Shown piece by piece: positions 50,340 to 58,452 of a DNA stretch of 64,000 nucleotides. The stretch's first letter is position 1, and each line of letters opens with the position of its first letter. The stretch comes from Methanomassiliicoccaceae archaeon. GTDB taxonomy: Archaea; Thermoplasmatota; Thermoplasmata; Methanomassiliicoccales; Methanomassiliicoccaceae. The position numbers were made by a program, and so were the translations under genes. The DNA lies in assembly GCA_040776945.1 (NCBI GenBank), contig JAXGZN010000002.1, forward strand, positions 160,001 through 224,000, written 5' to 3'. A model generated the notes under the pieces. It was not told the origin of the DNA, ran no database searches, and worked only from the letters and a program-made list of their open reading frames with translations.

Positions 50340-50614
50340 GTCCGGGGGCCCGCGATAACGTCGTTGATCCACCGCACCAGGACGCGATAGGCTTCCGAGC
50401 CCGTGCCGGTCAGCGGCACGCCCCCTCGGCCGGCCCCATCGTCCCTCATCTCCGCCAGGCCCTTCCCCTGCATCCAATCCAGGTACCTGGTGAACACGTC
50501 GTGGTTCACGCGGGATGCGAGCTGGAGCCGGGTGCGCAGCATCGGACGCTCCTCCTTCCACAGGCGCTCGAGGATGCGCGCGACCACGTACAGGTCCGAG
50601 CGGTCAATGGTCAT
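50336..50614 (-). CDS. small winged-helix DNA-binding protein (archaeal HTH_45-like)
   Basis: LYVVARILE, RTRLQLASRVNHDVF.RYLDWM..KGL, LT..G.EAY. Confidence 0.75.
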   Translation of the reverse strand: MTIDRSDLYVVARILERLWKEERPMLRTRLQLASRVNHDVFTRYLDWMQGKGLAEMRDDGAGRGGVPLTGTGSEAYRVLVRWINDVIAGPRT

Positions 50615-50733
50615 CTCAGCTCCTCAAGCGCCTTCTCCGCCGCCAGCCTCTACCTCTCGGCGCGTTCTTGCCATCGAGCCAGGACCACGTCCCTCTCCCG
50701 GCGGTCAGCGGCGGTGCATCTCTCCCAGGACAC
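50611..50733 (-). CDS. putative 40-aa peptide with in-frame amber codon (Pyl candidate) or pseudogene
   Basis: GTG start after AAGGA; TAG at codon 28; final TGA overlaps the wHTH ATG (ATGA). Confidence 0.35.
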
Positions 50734-50802
50734 CGTCCTTTCAGATATTGTCGAACCTGCTCTACGACAAATATAAATACACATCCAGATGGTCCCGTTG
50801 CG

Positions 50803-51486
50803 ATGAGGGAGCAGCTGCGCGAGAAGATCGCCGGAGAGATCACTCTATCGATCGACGCCGGCAAGACGATACGCAAGTGGCGCGAGGAGTTCGGCATCTC
50901 CCAGCAAGAACTGGCCAAGCATCTTGAGATATCGCCTTCGGTCATAAGCGACTACGAGTCCGGCCGAAGGCGTTCTCCGGGGATAGCCATCATCCGCCGC
51001 ATGGTCGACGGGTTGATCGATCTTGATGAGGCCTCCGGCTCCAACGTGCTGAAGCGCTACGACCTGGGCGAGAAACATGACTGCATAATCAGCATCAACG
51101 AGTTCCGCACCAGCATATCGGCCCAGGAGCTGATGGACATGATCGACGCCCAGCCGCTGAACCAAGGCGTCGATCTCGGCAGGCATATACATGGCTACAC
51201 GGTCATCGATTCCATAAAGGCCATAACGTCTCTTTCCTCGTTCGATTACCTCAAGATCTACGGCTGGTCATCGGAGCGCATACTCATCTTCACCGGCGTG
51301 AAGTTCGGGCGCTCCCCCATGATCGCCATCCGCGCCCACCCTCTCAAGCCGAGCGTGGTAGGCTACCACCGCCCGGAGCACGTTGATCAGCTGGCCATCA
51401 AGCTGGCCTCGCTGGAGAACATTCCGCTCATTAAGATCGACATGCCGGTCGCGGCCATGGTCGAACGGTTGAAGAAGCTCACCTAG
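50803..51486 (+). CDS. XRE-HTH transcriptional regulator (COG1709-like)
   Basis: [46 protein letters not shown]. Confidence 0.88.
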
Positions 51487-51496
51487 GAGGAAGTTA

Positions 51497-52555
51497 ATGG
51501 AAGTAGGAATAGTCAGCTACGGGGCCTACCTGCCCCGGTACAGGATAGCGCCGCAGGAGATCGGCCGGGTATGGGGGACGGACGGGGACGCGATGAGCCG
51601 CAACCTGCTGATCTTTTCCAAGTCGGTGCCCTCGCCGGACGAGGACGTCATCACGATTTCCATCGAGGCGGCCAGGAACATGATGCGCCGCTGCGATGTC
51701 GATCCCTGCGACATCGGCGCCATATACGTAGGTTCGGAATCGCATCCCTACGCGGTGAAGCCGACCGGGACGGTCGTGGCCGAGGCCATCGGGGCCTCTC
51801 CGAACCTTACCGTAGCTGATTACGAGTTCGCGTGCAAGGCCGGGACCGCGGCCATCCAGACGTGCATGGGGCTGGTAGGCTCGGGGATGATCGAATACGG
51901 CGTGGCCATCGGGGCGGACACCTCCCAGGGCGCACCTGGGGACGCCCTCGAGTACTCGGCGTCGGCGGGAGGCGCCGCATACCTCATAGGCTCGAAGAAC
52001 ATCGTGGCCCGCATCGATCGGACGTGCTCCTTCACCACCGACACCCCGGACTTCTGGAGGCGAGAGGGACAGTGCTATCCGTCGCATGGAGGGCGGTTCA
52101 CCGGCGAACCGGCGTACTTCAAGCATATCATGGCCGCCTCGCAGAGCCTAATGGAGAAGATGTCCTCGAAGCCAGCCGACTATGCGCACGCGGTGTTCCA
52201 CCAGCCCAACGGCAAGTTCCCGGTGAGGGTCGCCAAGCAGCTGGGTTTCAGCGAGAAGCAGATAGAGGCCGGGCTTCTGACGCCGTTCATAGGGAACACC
52301 TACTCCGGCGCGGTGCCCCTCGGCCTCGCGTCGGTTCTGGACATAGCGAAGCCAGGCGACCGCATCTTCGCCGTCGCCTACGGCTCCGGCGCGGGATCGG
52401 ACGCCTTCGACATCACCGTGACGAACGAGATCCTCGAACTGAGGAGGGACGCCGCGCCGACCGTGAAGGACCTGGTCGAGCACAAGAAGTTCCTCGACTA
52501 CGCCACCTACGCGAAGTTCCGAGGCAAGATAAGGATGAAGGGGGGAGCGGAATGA
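51497..52555 (+). CDS. archaeal hydroxymethylglutaryl-CoA synthase
   Basis: [19 protein letters not shown] (catalytic Cys), [23 protein letters not shown]. Confidence 0.95.
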
Positions 52556-53721
52556 GAGAGGTAGCCATCATAGGCATCGGCGACACCAAGTTCGGCGAGC
52601 TGTGGGACATGTCCTTCCGTCAGCTGGGCATCCAGGCGGGCCTGGCGGCGGTCGCCGACGCGAACCTGACCAGCGAGGAGATCGACGCGCTGTACGTCGG
52701 GAACATGTCGGCCGGGAAGTACATCGAGCAGGAACATATCGGAGCGCTCATAGCCGACTACTCGGGAATGGCGAGGGACCACATACCGGCCACGAGGGTG
52801 GAGGCGGCAGGCGCCTCCGGGGGACTGGCGTTCCGCCAGGGCTACATCGCCGTGGCCTCCGGCATGCACGACATCGTGGTGGTCGGGGGAGCGGAGAAGA
52901 TGACCGACGTCGGCGATGTCCTGTCGGGAGAGATCCAGGCCACCGCGGCGGACCAGCAGTGGGAGACGACCTTCGGCGCCACCTTCCCGGCGCTGCACGC
53001 CATGATCGCCCGGCGGCACATGTTCAAGTACGGAACGACCAGGGAGCAGCTGGCCTCCGTGGCGGTGAAGAACCACAAGCACGGCTCCTTGAACCCCAAG
53101 GCCCAGTTCCAGAAGGAGATCAAGTTGGACGCGGTGATCAAGGCCGCCCCGGTGGCCGAGCCGCTGGGGATGTTCGACTGCGCTCCGGTGTCCGACGGCG
53201 CCGCCGCCGTGGTCCTTTGCCCGCTGGAGAGGGCAAGGAAGTACACCGATACGCCGGTTAAGGTCCTGGGCTCAGGGCAGGCATCGGACACGCTCGCTCT
53301 CGCACATCGCAAGAGCATAACCCAGTTCGACGCCACCTCCATCGCGGCGCGGCAGGCCTTCAAGCAGGCCGGGATCGCCGCATCGGACGTCCAGATCGCC
53401 GAGGTGCACGACAACTTCACCATCTCCGAGATCCTGGCCATCGAGGACCTGGGCTTCTTCCCCAAAGGGACCGGTGGAAAGGCAACGCAGGACGGGCTGA
53501 CCTCGCTGGGAGCGAAGCTGGCGGTCAACACCTCCGGCGGGCTCAAGGCCCGCGGCGATCCCATGGGGGCGACCGGCATCGCCCAGGTAGTGGAGCTGGT
53601 GACGCAGCTCAGGGGAGAGGCGGGTAAGCGACAGGTCTCCGGGGCGGAGAGGGCGCTCGCTCAGAACGTCGGAGGGACCGGGGCGACGGTCGTCGTCAAC
53701 ATATTGGGGAGGGTGAACTGA
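52552..53721 (+). CDS. thiolase-fold protein (archaeal acetoacetyl-CoA thiolase homologue) with substituted catalytic residues
   Basis: Thiolase fold ([43 protein letters not shown]) but EAAGASG, HDNF and GDP at the catalytic positions. Confidence 0.9.
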
Positions 53722-54149
53722 TGGCCGTGGCGAGGTTCTGGAGGGAGAACGAGCCAAGATACAATCTCACGGGGGCCAAGTGCGGCAACTGCGGTCGCCT
53801 CTATTTCCCGCCGAGGACGGTGTGCCCGGTCTGCCACCGCAAGAGCATTGGGAAGATGGGGCCGTTCAAGCTCCAGGGGACCGGAGAGGTGATAACCTTC
53901 TCGGTGGTCCATGATGCCCCGTCGCAGTTCGAGCTGCAGAAGCCATATGTCATCGCCATCATCCAGATGGATGAGGGCATCCGAGTGACCGGCCAGGTGA
54001 TCGATTGCGATCCGGCGGAGGTCAACATAGGCATGAAGGTGCAGGCGGTGATCAGGAGGCTCGGCGAAGAGGGGGCGTCAGGGATCATTTACTATGGGTA
54101 CAAGTTCATGCCTTTGACGCCTCCCGCGGCTCCCCGGCCTCCGGAGTGA
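53721..54149 (+). CDS. DUF35 Zn-ribbon/OB-fold scaffold protein
   Basis: RFWRE..RYNL.G.KC..CG..YFPPR..CP.C, G.I.YGYKF. Confidence 0.93.
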   Translation: MAVARFWRENEPRYNLTGAKCGNCGRLYFPPRTVCPVCHRKSIGKMGPFKLQGTGEVITFSVVHDAPSQFELQKPYVIAIIQMDEGIRVTGQVIDCDPAEVNIGMKVQAVIRRLGEEGASGIIYYGYKFMPLTPPAAPRPPE

Positions 54150-54234: not shown

Positions 54235-57200
54235 TCAGGACGTGCCGTCCTTCGCCAGCTCTTTGACCATAGGGCGGGGCACGAACATCGCACGGAAGAC
54301 GACCGTCACTTTGTCCTCCGTGCCTGGTGACGGCAGCTGGGCCGTCCTCGATGGCCACAGGACAGGAGATATGCTCGCCCCCCTGCCGCTCAGCCCGCCC
54401 ACCATGACCGAGATCGCCGGCGCCGCCCCTTCGTTCACCAACGTGCCGCTTCGCAGCCGCAGGCTCGGCAGGCAGGATGAGTTCGAATTCTCCGCTTCAT
54501 CGACAGCCTGGCGAAGGTGCCGGACCGCCTGCGTCACACTGCCGGATGCCATAGCCTTTCTGTACTCCTCGATGCCCGCGTTTCCCATGCCCAGGGTCCG
54601 CGAGAGCGCCGCCTGCTCATGGTAACGGCGGGTGAGGTCTCGAAGGTCGAGAACCTCGGCCACGGTGGCCCCTACAGCCGCCTCGGCCTCCGCTAGTTGG
54701 TCCACGGCGGCCTCCAGCTTGTTCTCGGCCAGGGACCTCTGGGCCGTTCCCAGGATCGAGCGCGCCGCGCTGGTCTCGCCCCTGCCGCGCTCGACCCTGG
54801 ACCTTACCTGGGCCGCGCGATCTTCCAAGGCCTCTCTGACCCTAGAGCGGACCTGGGCAGTAATGTCGCGCAGGTTCCTTTCCTCCAGCAGCTCGGACAT
54901 CGGTCTGTCAAGGAGGCCTCTGGCATCGGCCGGGAGGTCATCGAGCGCGGGTCCCGCTCTGGACAGCAGCACGGCCGCGTTGACCAGATCGGCCACCGCT
55001 CGTCCGCTCGCTATCGAACTCTCGATGGCATGCAGCCTCCTAGCCCTCAGAAGGAGAGCGTCCATGCTCTCATACCTGCCGTTCGACAGGGCCTTACCGG
55101 CAGAGGCCAGCAGATCGGCCACCTCCGGCACCATGGCCTTGCGCCCCTCGCCCTCCAAGAGCGATGACCGAACCTCTTCCAGACGGGCCGCGGCCATCTC
55201 GTGGCGCTTCAGGCCGGAGTTGCCGGCGGAGCGGCATTCCTCGCTCAGGGCCAGCGCCTCTCGGAACGATCCGGACCCGAAGGCCTTCTGGGCCCGGGTC
55301 ATCAGCTCCTCAACATCCGCACGGTAGGGCGATGCGGGAAGGCGGACCATGCCCTCGGTCAGCTTGGACAGCGAGGAGACGCAGGCGTTCCTGATATCGC
55401 TCAGCTCTTCGAGGTTCTCGCGGTAAAGGTCAAGCCCCTTCTTGGCACTGCTGTAGCGATGGGCCTTAAGGTCATCCAGCAACGCGTCACGAGCGGCCTT
55501 GGGGCCGCCGGAGAGGTCCTTGCCCTTGAGGTCTTGGGCGCCCAGCTCCCGCTCGATGCGCGAAAGCTCGGATCGGATGCTCTCCCCGGCCTTGGCCCGA
55601 GCCCCGTGAAGCGCGTTCCTGGCGATCTCCGCCACGAGGTTGCAGCGGCCTCCCACGCGATGCTTCCTCGCCTGCTCCAATATCTCCCTGGCCTCCCCGA
55701 CGTCGACGCCGATGGCCTCGATGGCCGCTATGCCGGCCGCCGCGGCGCCCAGCTCCCTGCTCGCTGAGTTACGGGCCGCGATATACTGGCTCGCTTCTCT
55801 CCGGGCGAACCTGGCGGCCTGGAGCGCGTCGGAGTGCCGCTGGTCCGCGAGCATGTTCTCCGCCTTCTCCACGATGTCCATCACCATGCCTTCCGCGCCT
55901 CCCCCGCCGTTCCCATGCAGCATGCCTCGCACCTGCGCTATCTCGGAACGAATGCGCTCATTGGCCAGGTCCACTAGCTTTCGGCGCTCTTCCTTTGCCG
56001 CGGACAGCGCCGATGCCGCCTCGCCCTTCCGCAGACTTGCCGCAGCCGCCTCCAGCACCGCCTCGTTAGGTGCACTGTCGACCCCCAGCTGCCTCATCAC
56101 CGGAAGCATGCCTCTCGCTTCCTCCAGCGCGCGGGGTGCGAGCAGAGCCGCCCCGACCGCTTCCACCTCCCGATAGCAGGCGCGGGCGGAGGTCCTGGCC
56201 CCATCATAGAGGCCGGCCTCGAACAGCCTCTTGGTCTCCTTCAGCTGCTGGGCAACCTTGCCGTCGGCTGGCAGGCGAAGTTCCCCGGACAAGCGCGATA
56301 GCAGCACGATGAGGTCGTACACCTCGCTGTGCAGGGCAGCGGTCTTCTCCAGTTCCCTCTTTGCCCCGCTGTAAGCGATGTATCCTCTCTCCAGATCATC
56401 GTCCATCAGGGCGCGGGACGACTCCTCGGTCAGCCTGTCGACATGGGAGGTGGAAACACCTTTCTTGCGGGCCGCCGCGGAAGCACGGACCACATGGGCC
56501 AAGGATCGGGACATCTCATCACGGGCCAGGGACTTGGCGAACATGATGACCTCATCCACCCGGCGGAACGCCTCGTCCACGGTGGAGCGGTCCTGGTCTA
56601 TCTCCGCCATCTTCTCGTTCAACGTCTGCGACTCGATGCCGACCTCTCGGCATATGTTCAGCAGCGTCCGGGCCTGCGCCTTTCGGGCCTCCAGGCACGC
56701 CTCTCTTGCCCTCTCCACCTCGTCCATCACTCCCTCGGCCAGAGAGTGTGCGCCGTACCAGTCCTTCTTCTCCAGTAGCTCTTGGGCGCGCCGCCTCATG
56801 TCCAGCGCCTTGGCCAGATCGGTCCCCGGGGGAACGGAGTCCAAGGCCTTGGCGGCCTTCCGGAACTCGGCCCAGGTGCCAGCGATCAGCGCCGCCTCAA
56901 GCTCCAGGTTCAGCGTGGCCAGCCTCGATGATATGCTATCCAGCACGCCCTCCTTGAGGTCCTCTACAAGGTCGTCCAGCTCCTCGGCCTTCTCCTCCAC
57001 CTCTGCCCCGATGGATATTCCCGCGGAGACCATAAGCTGGCCGTTGAACACCTGTCTGGCGCACCGCTCCTGGACGATGCGGACCATCAGCCTCCTCGCC
57101 TTGGCCAAGGTATCGAAGCTATCCCCGAGCCTGCCGGCCAGGGCATCCTCACGGGCCTTGGCGACCAGGCGGCTGGCCTCGGAGGAGACCACGCGCATGC

Positions 57201-58452
57201 GTCTTGCCTGGAGGAAGGCCTTTCGGGTCTCATTGAGCTCCCTCTCCACCCGGCGGAAGGGAGCGAGGGCGTCGTCCAGCTCGGCCGATGCGTCATCGAC
57301 CATCTCGACGGCCTCTCTCGCCCGGCCGTAGACCGTTGCCGTTCGGGCCTCCTCTAGCCTGGACACCACCCGCTCCAGATCGAGGGAGGCACGCTTCGCT
57401 AGCACCATGCGGGGCCGGAGACCCTCTATTCGCTCGAGGACCACCTCCATCTCGCTCTCCCGCAGTGATTTCTCAGTTCGCCTGAGAAGCTCCAGCGCCT
57501 CCTCGCTGTCCCCGCCGGCGTTCGCCTCGGAGACCTTCTTGATGGCCGGGGCGAACCTCGCCACGTTCACTCCGTTCTTTTGGAGCCATGCGTTCCTCTC
57601 CTCCTGGGCCGCCACCAGGGCATTGACCGCCTCAGCGAGGATCGGACGAAGGGCCTCCTGCGCCTGGACCAGTGTGCGAAGGGCCTCCTCGATCTTGCCG
57701 CGCCCCATCTGGTCCCTGCTGGCGTCCACCAGGACGGTGACGGCGGACATGTCCGCTCCCGGGGCCCCGCTCTCCACCAGCTCCATTATGGATCCCGCCC
57801 GGGCCTCGACTATCTTGGAGAACGCCTCCTGCAGGCTCTTGAAGCAGCTTACCGCCTTGGACAGGGAGCCTTCGCGGTCGCCCTCCTCGTGAAGCTTGAT
57901 GGCCCTGTTCAGAGCCTGTCTGCGAGCCGCCACCGCGATCTTCTCTTTCTCTCCCAGCGCGATAAGGTTGCCGAGCTGCACGAACATCTCGGACATCCGG
58001 CGGTCCGCGTACTGCTCCGCGGCCTTCTTGGACTCGACGGCCGCGCTCATGGCCTCCTCCATGCGGCCTTCTCCGAGCTTCTGCCGGGAGCGTTCCACAA
58101 GCACCTCTATGGCCTGGTGGTCCTCGCCCTGGTCATCGATCATCGCGGCCACTCCATGGGCGGAGGACAGAACCTCCTCCACCTTTCCGGCCAACAGCTT
58201 GCTGGCCGTGCCGATGACCTTCTCGGCGGAGCTCTTTGCCGCGACGAAGTCACGCCTGCCGAAGGCCGCCCTTCCCGAAGAGAGCTCCTTTTCCAAGGCC
58301 TCGGTTTCGGCCCCCATTCTGCGGGACAGCTCGACCGCCTGCGCCGCCTCGACTAGCTTGTCCTCTGCCAGCTTGCGGTTCCTGGCGGCCTCTTTGGCCT
58401 TCTGTTCTAGCTGCTTGGTGAGCTGAAGCTGTTTTAGGTATTCGCTGCTCAA
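54235..58452 (-). CDS. 1405-aa Ala/Glu/Arg-rich alpha-helical repeat protein
   Basis: Long ORF with recurring helical units, no TM segment, short beta-rich C-terminus; TTG start. Confidence 0.8.
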   Translation of the reverse strand: MSSEYLKQLQLTKQLEQKAKEAARNRKLAEDKLVEAAQAVELSRRMGAETEALEKELSSGRAAFGRRDFVAAKSSAEKVIGTASKLLAGKVEEVLSSAHGVAAMIDDQGEDHQAIEVLVERSRQKLGEGRMEEAMSAAVESKKAAEQYADRRMSEMFVQLGNLIALGEKEKIAVAARRQALNRAIKLHEEGDREGSLSKAVSCFKSLQEAFSKIVEARAGSIMELVESGAPGADMSAVTVLVDASRDQMGRGKIEEALRTLVQAQEALRPILAEAVNALVAAQEERNAWLQKNGVNVARFAPAIKKVSEANAGGDSEEALELLRRTEKSLRESEMEVVLERIEGLRPRMVLAKRASLDLERVVSRLEEARTATVYGRAREAVEMVDDASAELDDALAPFRRVERELNETRKAFLQARRMRVVSSEASRLVAKAREDALAGRLGDSFDTLAKARRLMVRIVQERCARQVFNGQLMVSAGISIGAEVEEKAEELDDLVEDLKEGVLDSISSRLATLNLELEAALIAGTWAEFRKAAKALDSVPPGTDLAKALDMRRRAQELLEKKDWYGAHSLAEGVMDEVERAREACLEARKAQARTLLNICREVGIESQTLNEKMAEIDQDRSTVDEAFRRVDEVIMFAKSLARDEMSRSLAHVVRASAAARKKGVSTSHVDRLTEESSRALMDDDLERGYIAYSGAKRELEKTAALHSEVYDLIVLLSRLSGELRLPADGKVAQQLKETKRLFEAGLYDGARTSARACYREVEAVGAALLAPRALEEARGMLPVMRQLGVDSAPNEAVLEAAAASLRKGEAASALSAAKEERRKLVDLANERIRSEIAQVRGMLHGNGGGGAEGMVMDIVEKAENMLADQRHSDALQAARFARREASQYIAARNSASRELGAAAAGIAAIEAIGVDVGEAREILEQARKHRVGGRCNLVAEIARNALHGARAKAGESIRSELSRIERELGAQDLKGKDLSGGPKAARDALLDDLKAHRYSSAKKGLDLYRENLEELSDIRNACVSSLSKLTEGMVRLPASPYRADVEELMTRAQKAFGSGSFREALALSEECRSAGNSGLKRHEMAAARLEEVRSSLLEGEGRKAMVPEVADLLASAGKALSNGRYESMDALLLRARRLHAIESSIASGRAVADLVNAAVLLSRAGPALDDLPADARGLLDRPMSELLEERNLRDITAQVRSRVREALEDRAAQVRSRVERGRGETSAARSILGTAQRSLAENKLEAAVDQLAEAEAAVGATVAEVLDLRDLTRRYHEQAALSRTLGMGNAGIEEYRKAMASGSVTQAVRHLRQAVDEAENSNSSCLPSLRLRSGTLVNEGAAPAISVMVGGLSGRGASISPVLWPSRTAQLPSPGTEDKVTVVFRAMFVPRPMVKELAKDGTS

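Follow-up and report, generated by a model that had tools for sequence, protein, structure and literature searches.

How does an archaeon enter the mevalonate pathway when the thiolase encoded beside its 3-hydroxy-3-methylglutaryl-CoA (HMG-CoA) synthase has lost all three of its catalytic residues? The question is raised by an operon of a Methanomassiliicoccaceae archaeon (order Methanomassiliicoccales, phylum Thermoplasmatota; assembly GCA_040776945.1), which occupies positions 51,497 to 54,149 of the stretch of 64,000 nucleotides that was analysed, here called the window (contig JAXGZN010000002.1, positions 160,001 to 224,000 of the forward strand). The operon encodes HMG-CoA synthase (HMGS), a thiolase-like protein and a DUF35 protein. 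The catalytic loss is not confined to this genome but recurs across much of the phylum. The dead thiolase is probably kept as a structural subunit of the HMGS complex, with acetoacetyl-CoA being supplied by a second, class II thiolase (thiolase II).

The three genes follow each other in the order HMGS, thiolase-like protein and DUF35 protein, and neighbours overlap head to tail, the HMGS stop and the thiolase start sharing ATGA and the thiolase stop and the DUF35 start sharing TGATG (Table 1). The thiolase-like open reading frame translates to 389 codons with no internal stop. All three proteins match chains of the thiolase/HMGS/DUF35 complex of Methanothermococcus thermolithotrophicus (6esq_A for the thiolase, 6esq_I for HMGS and 6esq_E for DUF35). 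The match of the thiolase-like protein to 6esq_A has an E value of 1.3e-109 (HMMER), the Foldseek alignment with 6esq shows 48% identity, and its Pfam matches, Thiolase_C_1 (155.5 bits) and Thiolase_N (95.7 bits), are both over the cut-off. The DUF35 protein matches two Pfam domains only, OB_ChsH2_C (77.4 bits) and zf-ChsH2 (44 bits), and the four cysteines of its zinc ribbon (C21, C24, C35 and C38) do not vary in any of the 30 sequences compared. The residues E-C-H-N are described as the catalytic tetrad of HMGS (PMC12960953, section 10), and in the window they are E81, C113, H235 and N267, invariant in all 31 aligned sequences. The genome has a single DUF35 gene by a PF01796 search, and searches with PF01154 and PF08541 returned no HMGS or KAS III-like gene in it besides the HMGS of the window.

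Table 1. Positions of the operon genes, of the substituted catalytic codons and of the second thiolase gene.
Feature	Position	Strand	Remarks
Archaeal-type HMG-CoA synthase (HMGS)	51497..52555	+	352 aa; 518 bits to 6esq_I; catalytic residues intact
Thiolase-like subunit, SCP2/archaeal type	52552..53721	+	389 aa; open frame; catalytic triad gone; read as pseudoenzyme
DUF35 protein, rubredoxin-like zinc ribbon and OB fold	53721..54149	+	142 aa; 145 bits to 6esq_E
Codon 87, GGC (Gly)	52810..52812	+	replaces nucleophilic Cys of VEAACASG (6esq_A alignment)
Codon 288, AAC (Asn)	53413..53415	+	replaces acid/base Cys of EVHDCF (6esq_A alignment)
Codon 336, GAT (Asp)	53557..53559	+	replaces His of Gly-His motif; RGDP faces AGHA of 6esq_A
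Class II (bacterial-type) acetyl-CoA acetyltransferase	G000:C1:756569-757789 (other contig than the window)		full open reading frame

A preliminary description of the operon, drawn up from its letters alone, had read Gly87, Asn288 and Asp336 from GGC at 52810, AAC at 53413 and GAT at 53557. These readings are exact, and the three residues face the Cys, Cys and His of 6esq_A. The description had also reported an intact frame coupled to both neighbours and an HMGS that keeps its catalytic Glu, Cys and His, and both observations stand; the background on which it relied, that active relatives carry EAACASG, HDCF and GH motifs and form a complex through DUF35, is borne out by the 6esq alignment and by PMC12960953. 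In the archaeal complex the substitution H284A in the HDxF motif alone abolishes the formation of HMG-CoA from acetyl-CoA (PMC12960953, section 10), and since this single change is enough to kill the complex we infer that the thiolase of the window is inactive as a thiolase. The protein has two cysteines, C210 and C223, and because each of them faces a Cys in the active 6esq_A they are not new candidate nucleophiles. The predicted structure (AF2) has a pLDDT of 91.8 and superimposes on 6esq_A with a TM score of 0.96 and a root-mean-square deviation of 1.2 Å (1.2-1.4 Å for 6esq/6et9).

Orthologues were collected from other genomes of the genus, the family and the order (29 loci, 73-92% identity). 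Cys87, Cys288 and His336 are present in none of them. Position 87 is Gly in 28 loci and Asp in one, position 288 is Asn in 23, Ser in five and Asp in one, and position 336 is Asp in all 29; the His of the HDxF motif is itself replaced by Asn in six. Of the fixed Gly, Asn and Asp for which the preliminary description had proposed to look, Asp336 is fixed in the order and Gly87 and Asn288 are not, and phylum-wide these positions vary, with Phe, Gln, Asn or Tyr at position 336 in more distant relatives. Two independent DNA runs (X9 and X10), neither of them flagged as a possible source of the assembly, gave contigs over all three codons with no letter difference. As all 29 orthologue loci are without Cys/Cys/His, sequencing error and chance are excluded, as the earlier argument from three separate substitutions had anticipated; reads or close orthologues with the full triad, which could have overturned it, are seen neither in these loci nor in the two runs. 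In addition, contigs from two RNA libraries are identical to the window across codons 87 and 288, which is a weak hint of expression only, because DNA can occur in such libraries. A set of 80 loci taken from named public records shows the Cys-less state throughout. Two of the six scan patterns behind this set were built from dead motifs and it partly overlaps the genomes of the order; since these patterns bias it to the dead form, it was not used for frequencies.

The dead thiolase is under purifying selection, another point that the preliminary description had singled out for checking. Over pairs within the genus, the ratio of nonsynonymous to synonymous substitution rates (dN/dS) has a median of 0.110 in the thiolase (45 pairs), compared with 0.093 in HMGS (36 pairs) and 0.159 in DUF35 (45 pairs). 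Within the order, two genomes (G006, 67% complete, and G034, 99% complete) gave no match to the window thiolase, and in a third (G025) the sole match is partial and lies where a contig starts; these cases are read as presumable assembly gaps. In many loci recorded as 'Thermoplasmata archaeon' (L075, L077, L083-L093 and others; about 65% identity, state G/N/Q at the three positions) the first motif reads RVEGGGACGA, with a Cys two residues past the lost nucleophile.

The preliminary description had also called for a search for a second, Cys-containing thiolase, and such a gene exists. The genome, which comprises 2.17 Mb in two contigs and is 99.8% complete, has exactly one further Thiolase_N match (PF00108; C1:756626-757396, 316 bits), and it belongs to the class II gene of Table 1. 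Its product has the motifs VCGSG, HNEAF, GHP and CLGGG and scores 433 bits against the biosynthetic thiolase of Clostridium (4n44_A). The gene stands between tiaS and a gene for an M20 peptidase. A class II thiolase was found in all 41 genomes of the order, and the four motifs (VCGSG, NEAF, GHP and CLGGG) are retained in the 14 loci that were checked. The ECH_1 (crotonase) profile has no match in the genome of the window, and 3HCDH_N gave no clear 3-hydroxyacyl-CoA dehydrogenase there, the two weak and partial matches of 28.8 and 23.9 bits (cut-off 22) spanning 86 and 43 of the 180 profile positions. As no beta-oxidation or butyrate partners are visible in this genome, HMGS is the obvious consumer of the class II product. 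HMG-CoA reductase is present in one copy, and the genome shows no further enzyme for acetoacetyl-CoA.

In three genomes of one family (f7) each class II match contains one in-frame TAG (G195:C59:1665-2852, G157:C2:85245-86432 and G077:C169:1365-2552). The matches begin at query residue 12, so that the TAG may be situated upstream of the actual start codon. It could also be read as a residue, the order being one that uses pyrrolysine.

The survey was extended to 201 genomes of Thermoplasmatota, at least 85% complete, from which the best match to the window thiolase was taken with its flanks. A first set of 110 genomes, to which four were added later, gave 114 genomes from 39 family codes with one HMGS-linked thiolase each, and a classical thiolase was scored as present at E <= 1e-40 with PF00108, a level that the archaeal type does not attain. 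Cys87 is lost and a classical thiolase present in 68 of the 114 genomes (30 families), and not one genome has lost Cys87 while being without a classical thiolase. Cys87 is kept in 18 genomes with a classical thiolase (six families) and in 28 genomes without (six families), so that every one of the 28 genomes that have no classical thiolase retains the nucleophile. The genes for HMGS, thiolase and DUF35 are adjacent and in the same order in 110 of the 110 loci tabulated, whether the thiolase is dead or alive.

Some families are instructive in themselves. In f42 the sole genome with a classical thiolase has the state GCH (residues at 87, 288 and 336), whereas the five without it are CCH. In f11 the class II gene adjoins the HMGS operon and is divergent from it (G105:C20:4305-5456, L245; G225:C13:10654-11904, L246), the match in G225 being in two pieces inside one open frame of 436 aa. 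Under a stricter criterion (E <= 1e-80) this genome and G122 had appeared to combine a dead thiolase with the lack of a classical one; a relaxed search found class II in both, that of G122 being a fragment at a contig end. The archaeal-type thiolase was found in none of the 16 genomes of f16, all of which have a classical thiolase. The five of these that were tested (L230-L234; G116, G044, G182, G052 and G187) have no archaeal-type HMGS, and their only HMGS homologue is a protein of about 540 aa, of another type and about 30% identical to the HMGS of the window, so that the whole archaeal module looks replaced. Going by the adjacency in 110 of 110 loci and by the five f16 genomes tested, which have neither, no archaeal-type HMGS was met with that had no thiolase and DUF35 beside it. 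In f31 (L235-L239) the best thiolase match is of the CCH type, with no HMGS or DUF35 within 1.5 kb in five of five genomes; a classical thiolase is present in all 29 genomes of this family, which was left out of the 114. In one f9 genome (G169, 99% complete, 200 contigs) the searches gave no thiolase of either type, archaeal or classical, for which a gap in the assembly or a third solution may account. The in-frame stops of three thiolase matches in f10 are not breaks, tblastn having run one residue past the true stop.

The manner in which the catalytic residues were lost is informative. Among the 68 Cys-less forms Cys288 is kept in three and His336 in 40, and a single protein (CCN) has lost the His with both Cys kept, which suggests that the nucleophile goes first and that the rest drifts. 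The replacements across the phylum are diverse, with G, D, S, T or E at position 87, S, A, N, D, V, G or T at 288 and D, Q, Y, N, F or R at 336. When 38 CCH proteins were compared with the 68 Cys-less proteins, seven thiolase sites that are invariant in the active forms were relaxed in the Cys-less ones (C87, T126, L129, A130, N177, S211 and C288), S211 having become Ala in 58 of the 68. A further 61 sites are conserved in active and Cys-less forms alike, and the latter show no new conserved site, a picture of decay more than of redesign. In the partners one site is relaxed in HMGS and two in DUF35. The divergence of the thiolase relative to that of HMGS is 1.03 in active forms, 1.27 in Cys-less forms and 1.33 in lineages that have lost all three residues, and this is modest relaxation, not release. 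Near the former active site H286 (most), D287, N326, S328, G329, G330 and K332 are still conserved.

It is in the relation between HMGS and its partners that the retention of the dead protein would find its explanation. The class II thiolase would make free acetoacetyl-CoA, and HMGS, assembled with the dead thiolase and DUF35, would take it together with acetyl-CoA and produce HMG-CoA for isoprenoid lipids. The dead thiolase together with DUF35 would supply quaternary structure and part of the CoA site of HMGS and thiolase, which in the solved complex is common to both (PMC12960953, section 9). The thiolase reaction itself would have been handed to thiolase II by non-orthologous displacement, the remaining catalytic positions drifting once the nucleophile was lost, and the old subunit would not have been discarded because archaeal HMGS would need thiolase and DUF35 for its assembly and CoA binding. 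A scaffold of this kind, with acetoacetyl-CoA coming from elsewhere, was one of the two possibilities raised in the preliminary description, and it is supported by the class II thiolase, by the purifying selection and by the pattern of 68 genomes to none. As the thiolase triad is missing, HMG-CoA synthesis from acetyl-CoA alone through a channelled intermediate is predicted not to occur. When the complex was predicted from alignments of HMGS, thiolase and DUF35 the thiolase scored 0.92 as partner, but a control in which HMGS was replaced scored 0.86, and the result speaks neither for binding nor against it.

The closest known system is the complex of M. thermolithotrophicus, which has the same three genes as close homologues and whose HMGS residues and DUF35 zinc ribbon are kept here. 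Its thiolase, however, has Cys/Cys/His where that of the window has Gly/Asn/Asp, and because the triad is replaced the window thiolase could not supply acetoacetyl-CoA and on-site channelling could not operate. A further difference is the separate class II thiolase in the genome of the window. The bacterial complexes PhlABC (5m3k), MucABC (9vbo) and PfACAT/HMGS-DUF35 have the same tripartite module with one dead thiolase-fold subunit retained, and PMC12960953 reports that the interfacial CoA chamber is retained in them. They are the mirror image of the present case, with a dead HMGS-like subunit and a Cys-bearing acetyl-CoA acetyltransferase (ACAT) where the window has a dead ACAT and an intact HMGS. 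Moreover they have left primary metabolism, whereas the complex of the window appears to be still in the mevalonate pathway. ST0096 of Sulfolobus tokodaii (4yzo) and TbSLP of Trypanosoma brucei (5ab4) belong to the same fold family and have altered catalytic positions; in the alignment 4yzo has Ser at the nucleophile position and Met for the Cys of HDCF. These two are paralogues for which linkage to HMGS is not shown here, whereas the window protein is the orthologue of the mevalonate thiolase by synteny and by its identity to 6esq. Loss of the nucleophile is not rare in the family, as it was found in 36 of 132 full-length representatives of 50% clusters (18 of 150 were left out for length).

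An active thiolase-fold enzyme that is obligatorily paired with a Cys-less homologue is familiar from the ketosynthase/chain-length factor of type II polyketide synthases. That pair belongs to a different branch of the superfamily, its partners are paralogues of the same enzyme and the chain-length factor has its own role in setting chain length. As regards archaea, Hoshino and Gaucher (2018; PMC6107057) mention many 'other AACT homologs' without the catalytic CH motif, outside the early-branching clades, and the presence of thiolase II in some archaea. A literature search found no description of a dead HMGS-linked thiolase in Thermoplasmatota; the supplement of PMC6107057 may bear on this novelty.

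Several points weigh against the reading of the protein as a retained structural subunit. The sampling covers one phylum, with one genome per species, and the table of 68 to none overstates the case and is descriptive, because relatives share states. On a tree of HMGS and DUF35, from which the thiolase was left out (FastTree and an IQ-TREE quick search), only five independent contrasts in the presence of a classical thiolase are available, which is thin support. With FastTree two are for the association, none is against it and three show no difference (sign test, p 0.5), and with IQ-TREE about three are for, none against and two without difference (p 0.25); neither is significant. Furthermore, the classical thiolase of the 18 genomes with an intact archaeal thiolase is a reminder that presence alone does not show use. 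The physical assembly of the three window proteins is presumed, from the retention of the operon and from homology to 6esq. A dN/dS close to that of HMGS is much constraint for a mere spacer, and the conserved residues of the pocket would also fit a ligand-binding pocket.

The same tree gives the number of changes of state, at least seven for Cys87, six for Cys288 and 10 to 11 for His336. At least four of the Cys87 losses are on well-supported branches in the FastTree topology, namely G114 within the clade of f42 and f13, which is CCH, f43 and f45 beside f26 (CCH), f10 and f11 beside f9 (CAH), and the rest, and the replacement residues vary among these branches (G; S; T or S; D or G). Under the stricter class II criterion (E <= 1e-80), a previous analysis had given eight contrasts, about three of them for the association, which was not significant either.

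The constraint and the conserved pocket bring forward the alternative that the dead subunit, by its remodelled pocket or surface, receives or senses free acetoacetyl-CoA or other acyl-CoAs, or serves as a platform on which thiolase II docks so that channelling is kept. Selection as strong as that on HMGS and the preserved pocket motifs would both fit this, as would the split of the CoA site between HMGS and thiolase in the solved complex (PMC12960953, section 9) and the class II gene that directly adjoins the HMGS operon in f11. In the genome of the window, on the other hand, the class II gene is on another contig, between tiaS and the M20 peptidase gene, and nothing seen here bears directly on the binding of a ligand or of thiolase II. 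S211 is relaxed to Ala in most Cys-less forms, and that it lines the pantetheine tunnel is a guess from its position beside the SDG loop. For the window protein we hold this alternative to be quite unlikely. Its general form, in which the dead thiolase of most Thermoplasmatota would be such an acyl-CoA receiving or sensing subunit or thiolase II dock, evolved repeatedly after the arrival of thiolase II, so that archaeal HMGS could use acetoacetyl-CoA made outside the complex with the internal hand-over kept, is also unlikely, if not to be neglected.

New chemistry in the complex was the second possibility of the preliminary description, and it is disfavoured. The protein would then act, for instance, as an aldolase, a decarboxylase or a hydrolase on a CoA ester, using other residues. 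Real enzymes of this general kind exist, since the steroid aldolases Ltp2-ChsH2(DUF35) and Sal-Shy(DUF35) (6ok1 and 9myr) likewise combine a Cys-less SCP2-type fold with DUF35 (PMC12329534), and both are among the fold matches of the window thiolase; in sequence, its E value to 6ok1_A is 4.4e-39. The strong purifying selection, the many conserved residues that line the pocket and an Asp336 fixed throughout the order could also be expected of an enzyme. But no site is conserved in Cys-less forms that is not conserved in active ones, and close lineages differ at 336 (D/F/Q/N/Y) and 288 (N/S/D), and even H286 gives way to Asn in six of the 29 orthologue loci. Catalysis in the aldolases relies on the Tyr of a motif that reads YDHF or YDCY, together with a second Tyr or the Cys of the motif (PMC12329534). 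The window has HDNF, of which H286 is the first residue, so that the position of the aldolase Tyr is taken by His or, in some orthologues, by Asn. In the aldolases a MaoC-type hydratase carries DUF35 as its C-terminal domain, whereas the DUF35 of the window is free-standing (142 aa), is not the tail of a hydratase and is encoded beside HMGS, in surroundings that have nothing of a steroid or hydratase pathway. HMGS, its neighbour in the operon, is unchanged, and no obvious pathway for a new substrate is seen in the genome. We accordingly give a new activity little credence.

It is highly improbable that the protein is still an acetoacetyl-CoA thiolase with another nucleophile and another base. 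C210, which hardly varies, is part of a conserved DCAPVSDG loop, but like C223 it has its counterpart in 6esq and hence is not a replacement. All three catalytic positions are gone, together with the HDxF His in six loci of the order, where H284A by itself already kills the archaeal complex (PMC12960953, section 10), and the genomes without a classical thiolase (28 of 28) all keep Cys87. The explanation by sequencing or assembly errors, or by a decaying pseudogene, has nothing in its favour and is refuted by two identical DNA runs, by the same state in 29 of 29 orthologue loci and 80 of 80 public-record loci, and by an open frame with a dN/dS of 0.11.

The surroundings of the operon can be described briefly. 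On the forward strand an open reading frame with an HTH_3 (XRE-type) DNA-binding domain (50515-51486) stops 10 bases upstream of the HMGS start; its true start is probably an internal Met, and it could be a regulator of the HMGS operon. On the reverse strand, convergent with the operon, lies an open reading frame of 1405 aa (54235-58452), rich in Ala, Glu, Arg and Leu and coiled-coil-like by eye, which matched no Pfam family at E <= 0.001. Within the HMGS gene, at 52210-52385, high-depth metagenome contigs of runs X9 and X10 match only the 23-base flanks on either side of a diverged stretch of 174 bases. They are probably HMGS genes of other organisms with conserved words in common.

The thiolase/HMGS/DUF35 complex is regarded as a near-universal archaeal entry into the mevalonate pathway, and the rationale given for it is that channelling pulls the unfavourable thiolase step. 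The dead HMGS-linked thiolase is new as a variant of this known complex, not as a new kind of system. In many annotations such genes probably go under the name of acetyl-CoA acetyltransferase and are taken for the first step of the pathway, an assignment that is probably wrong for these lineages. The decay series, with the nucleophile lost first and the His last, could be used for studying how pseudoenzymes originate. If the reading of a retained structural subunit is true, channelling has been abandoned in much of one archaeal phylum (68 of the 114 genomes and 30 of the 39 family codes), including the order of the present methanogen, which is associated with guts and digesters. These lineages would make acetoacetyl-CoA with a bacterial-type enzyme, yet none would have shed the old subunit, and its retention would be a comparative argument for a structural dependence of archaeal HMGS on the other two proteins.

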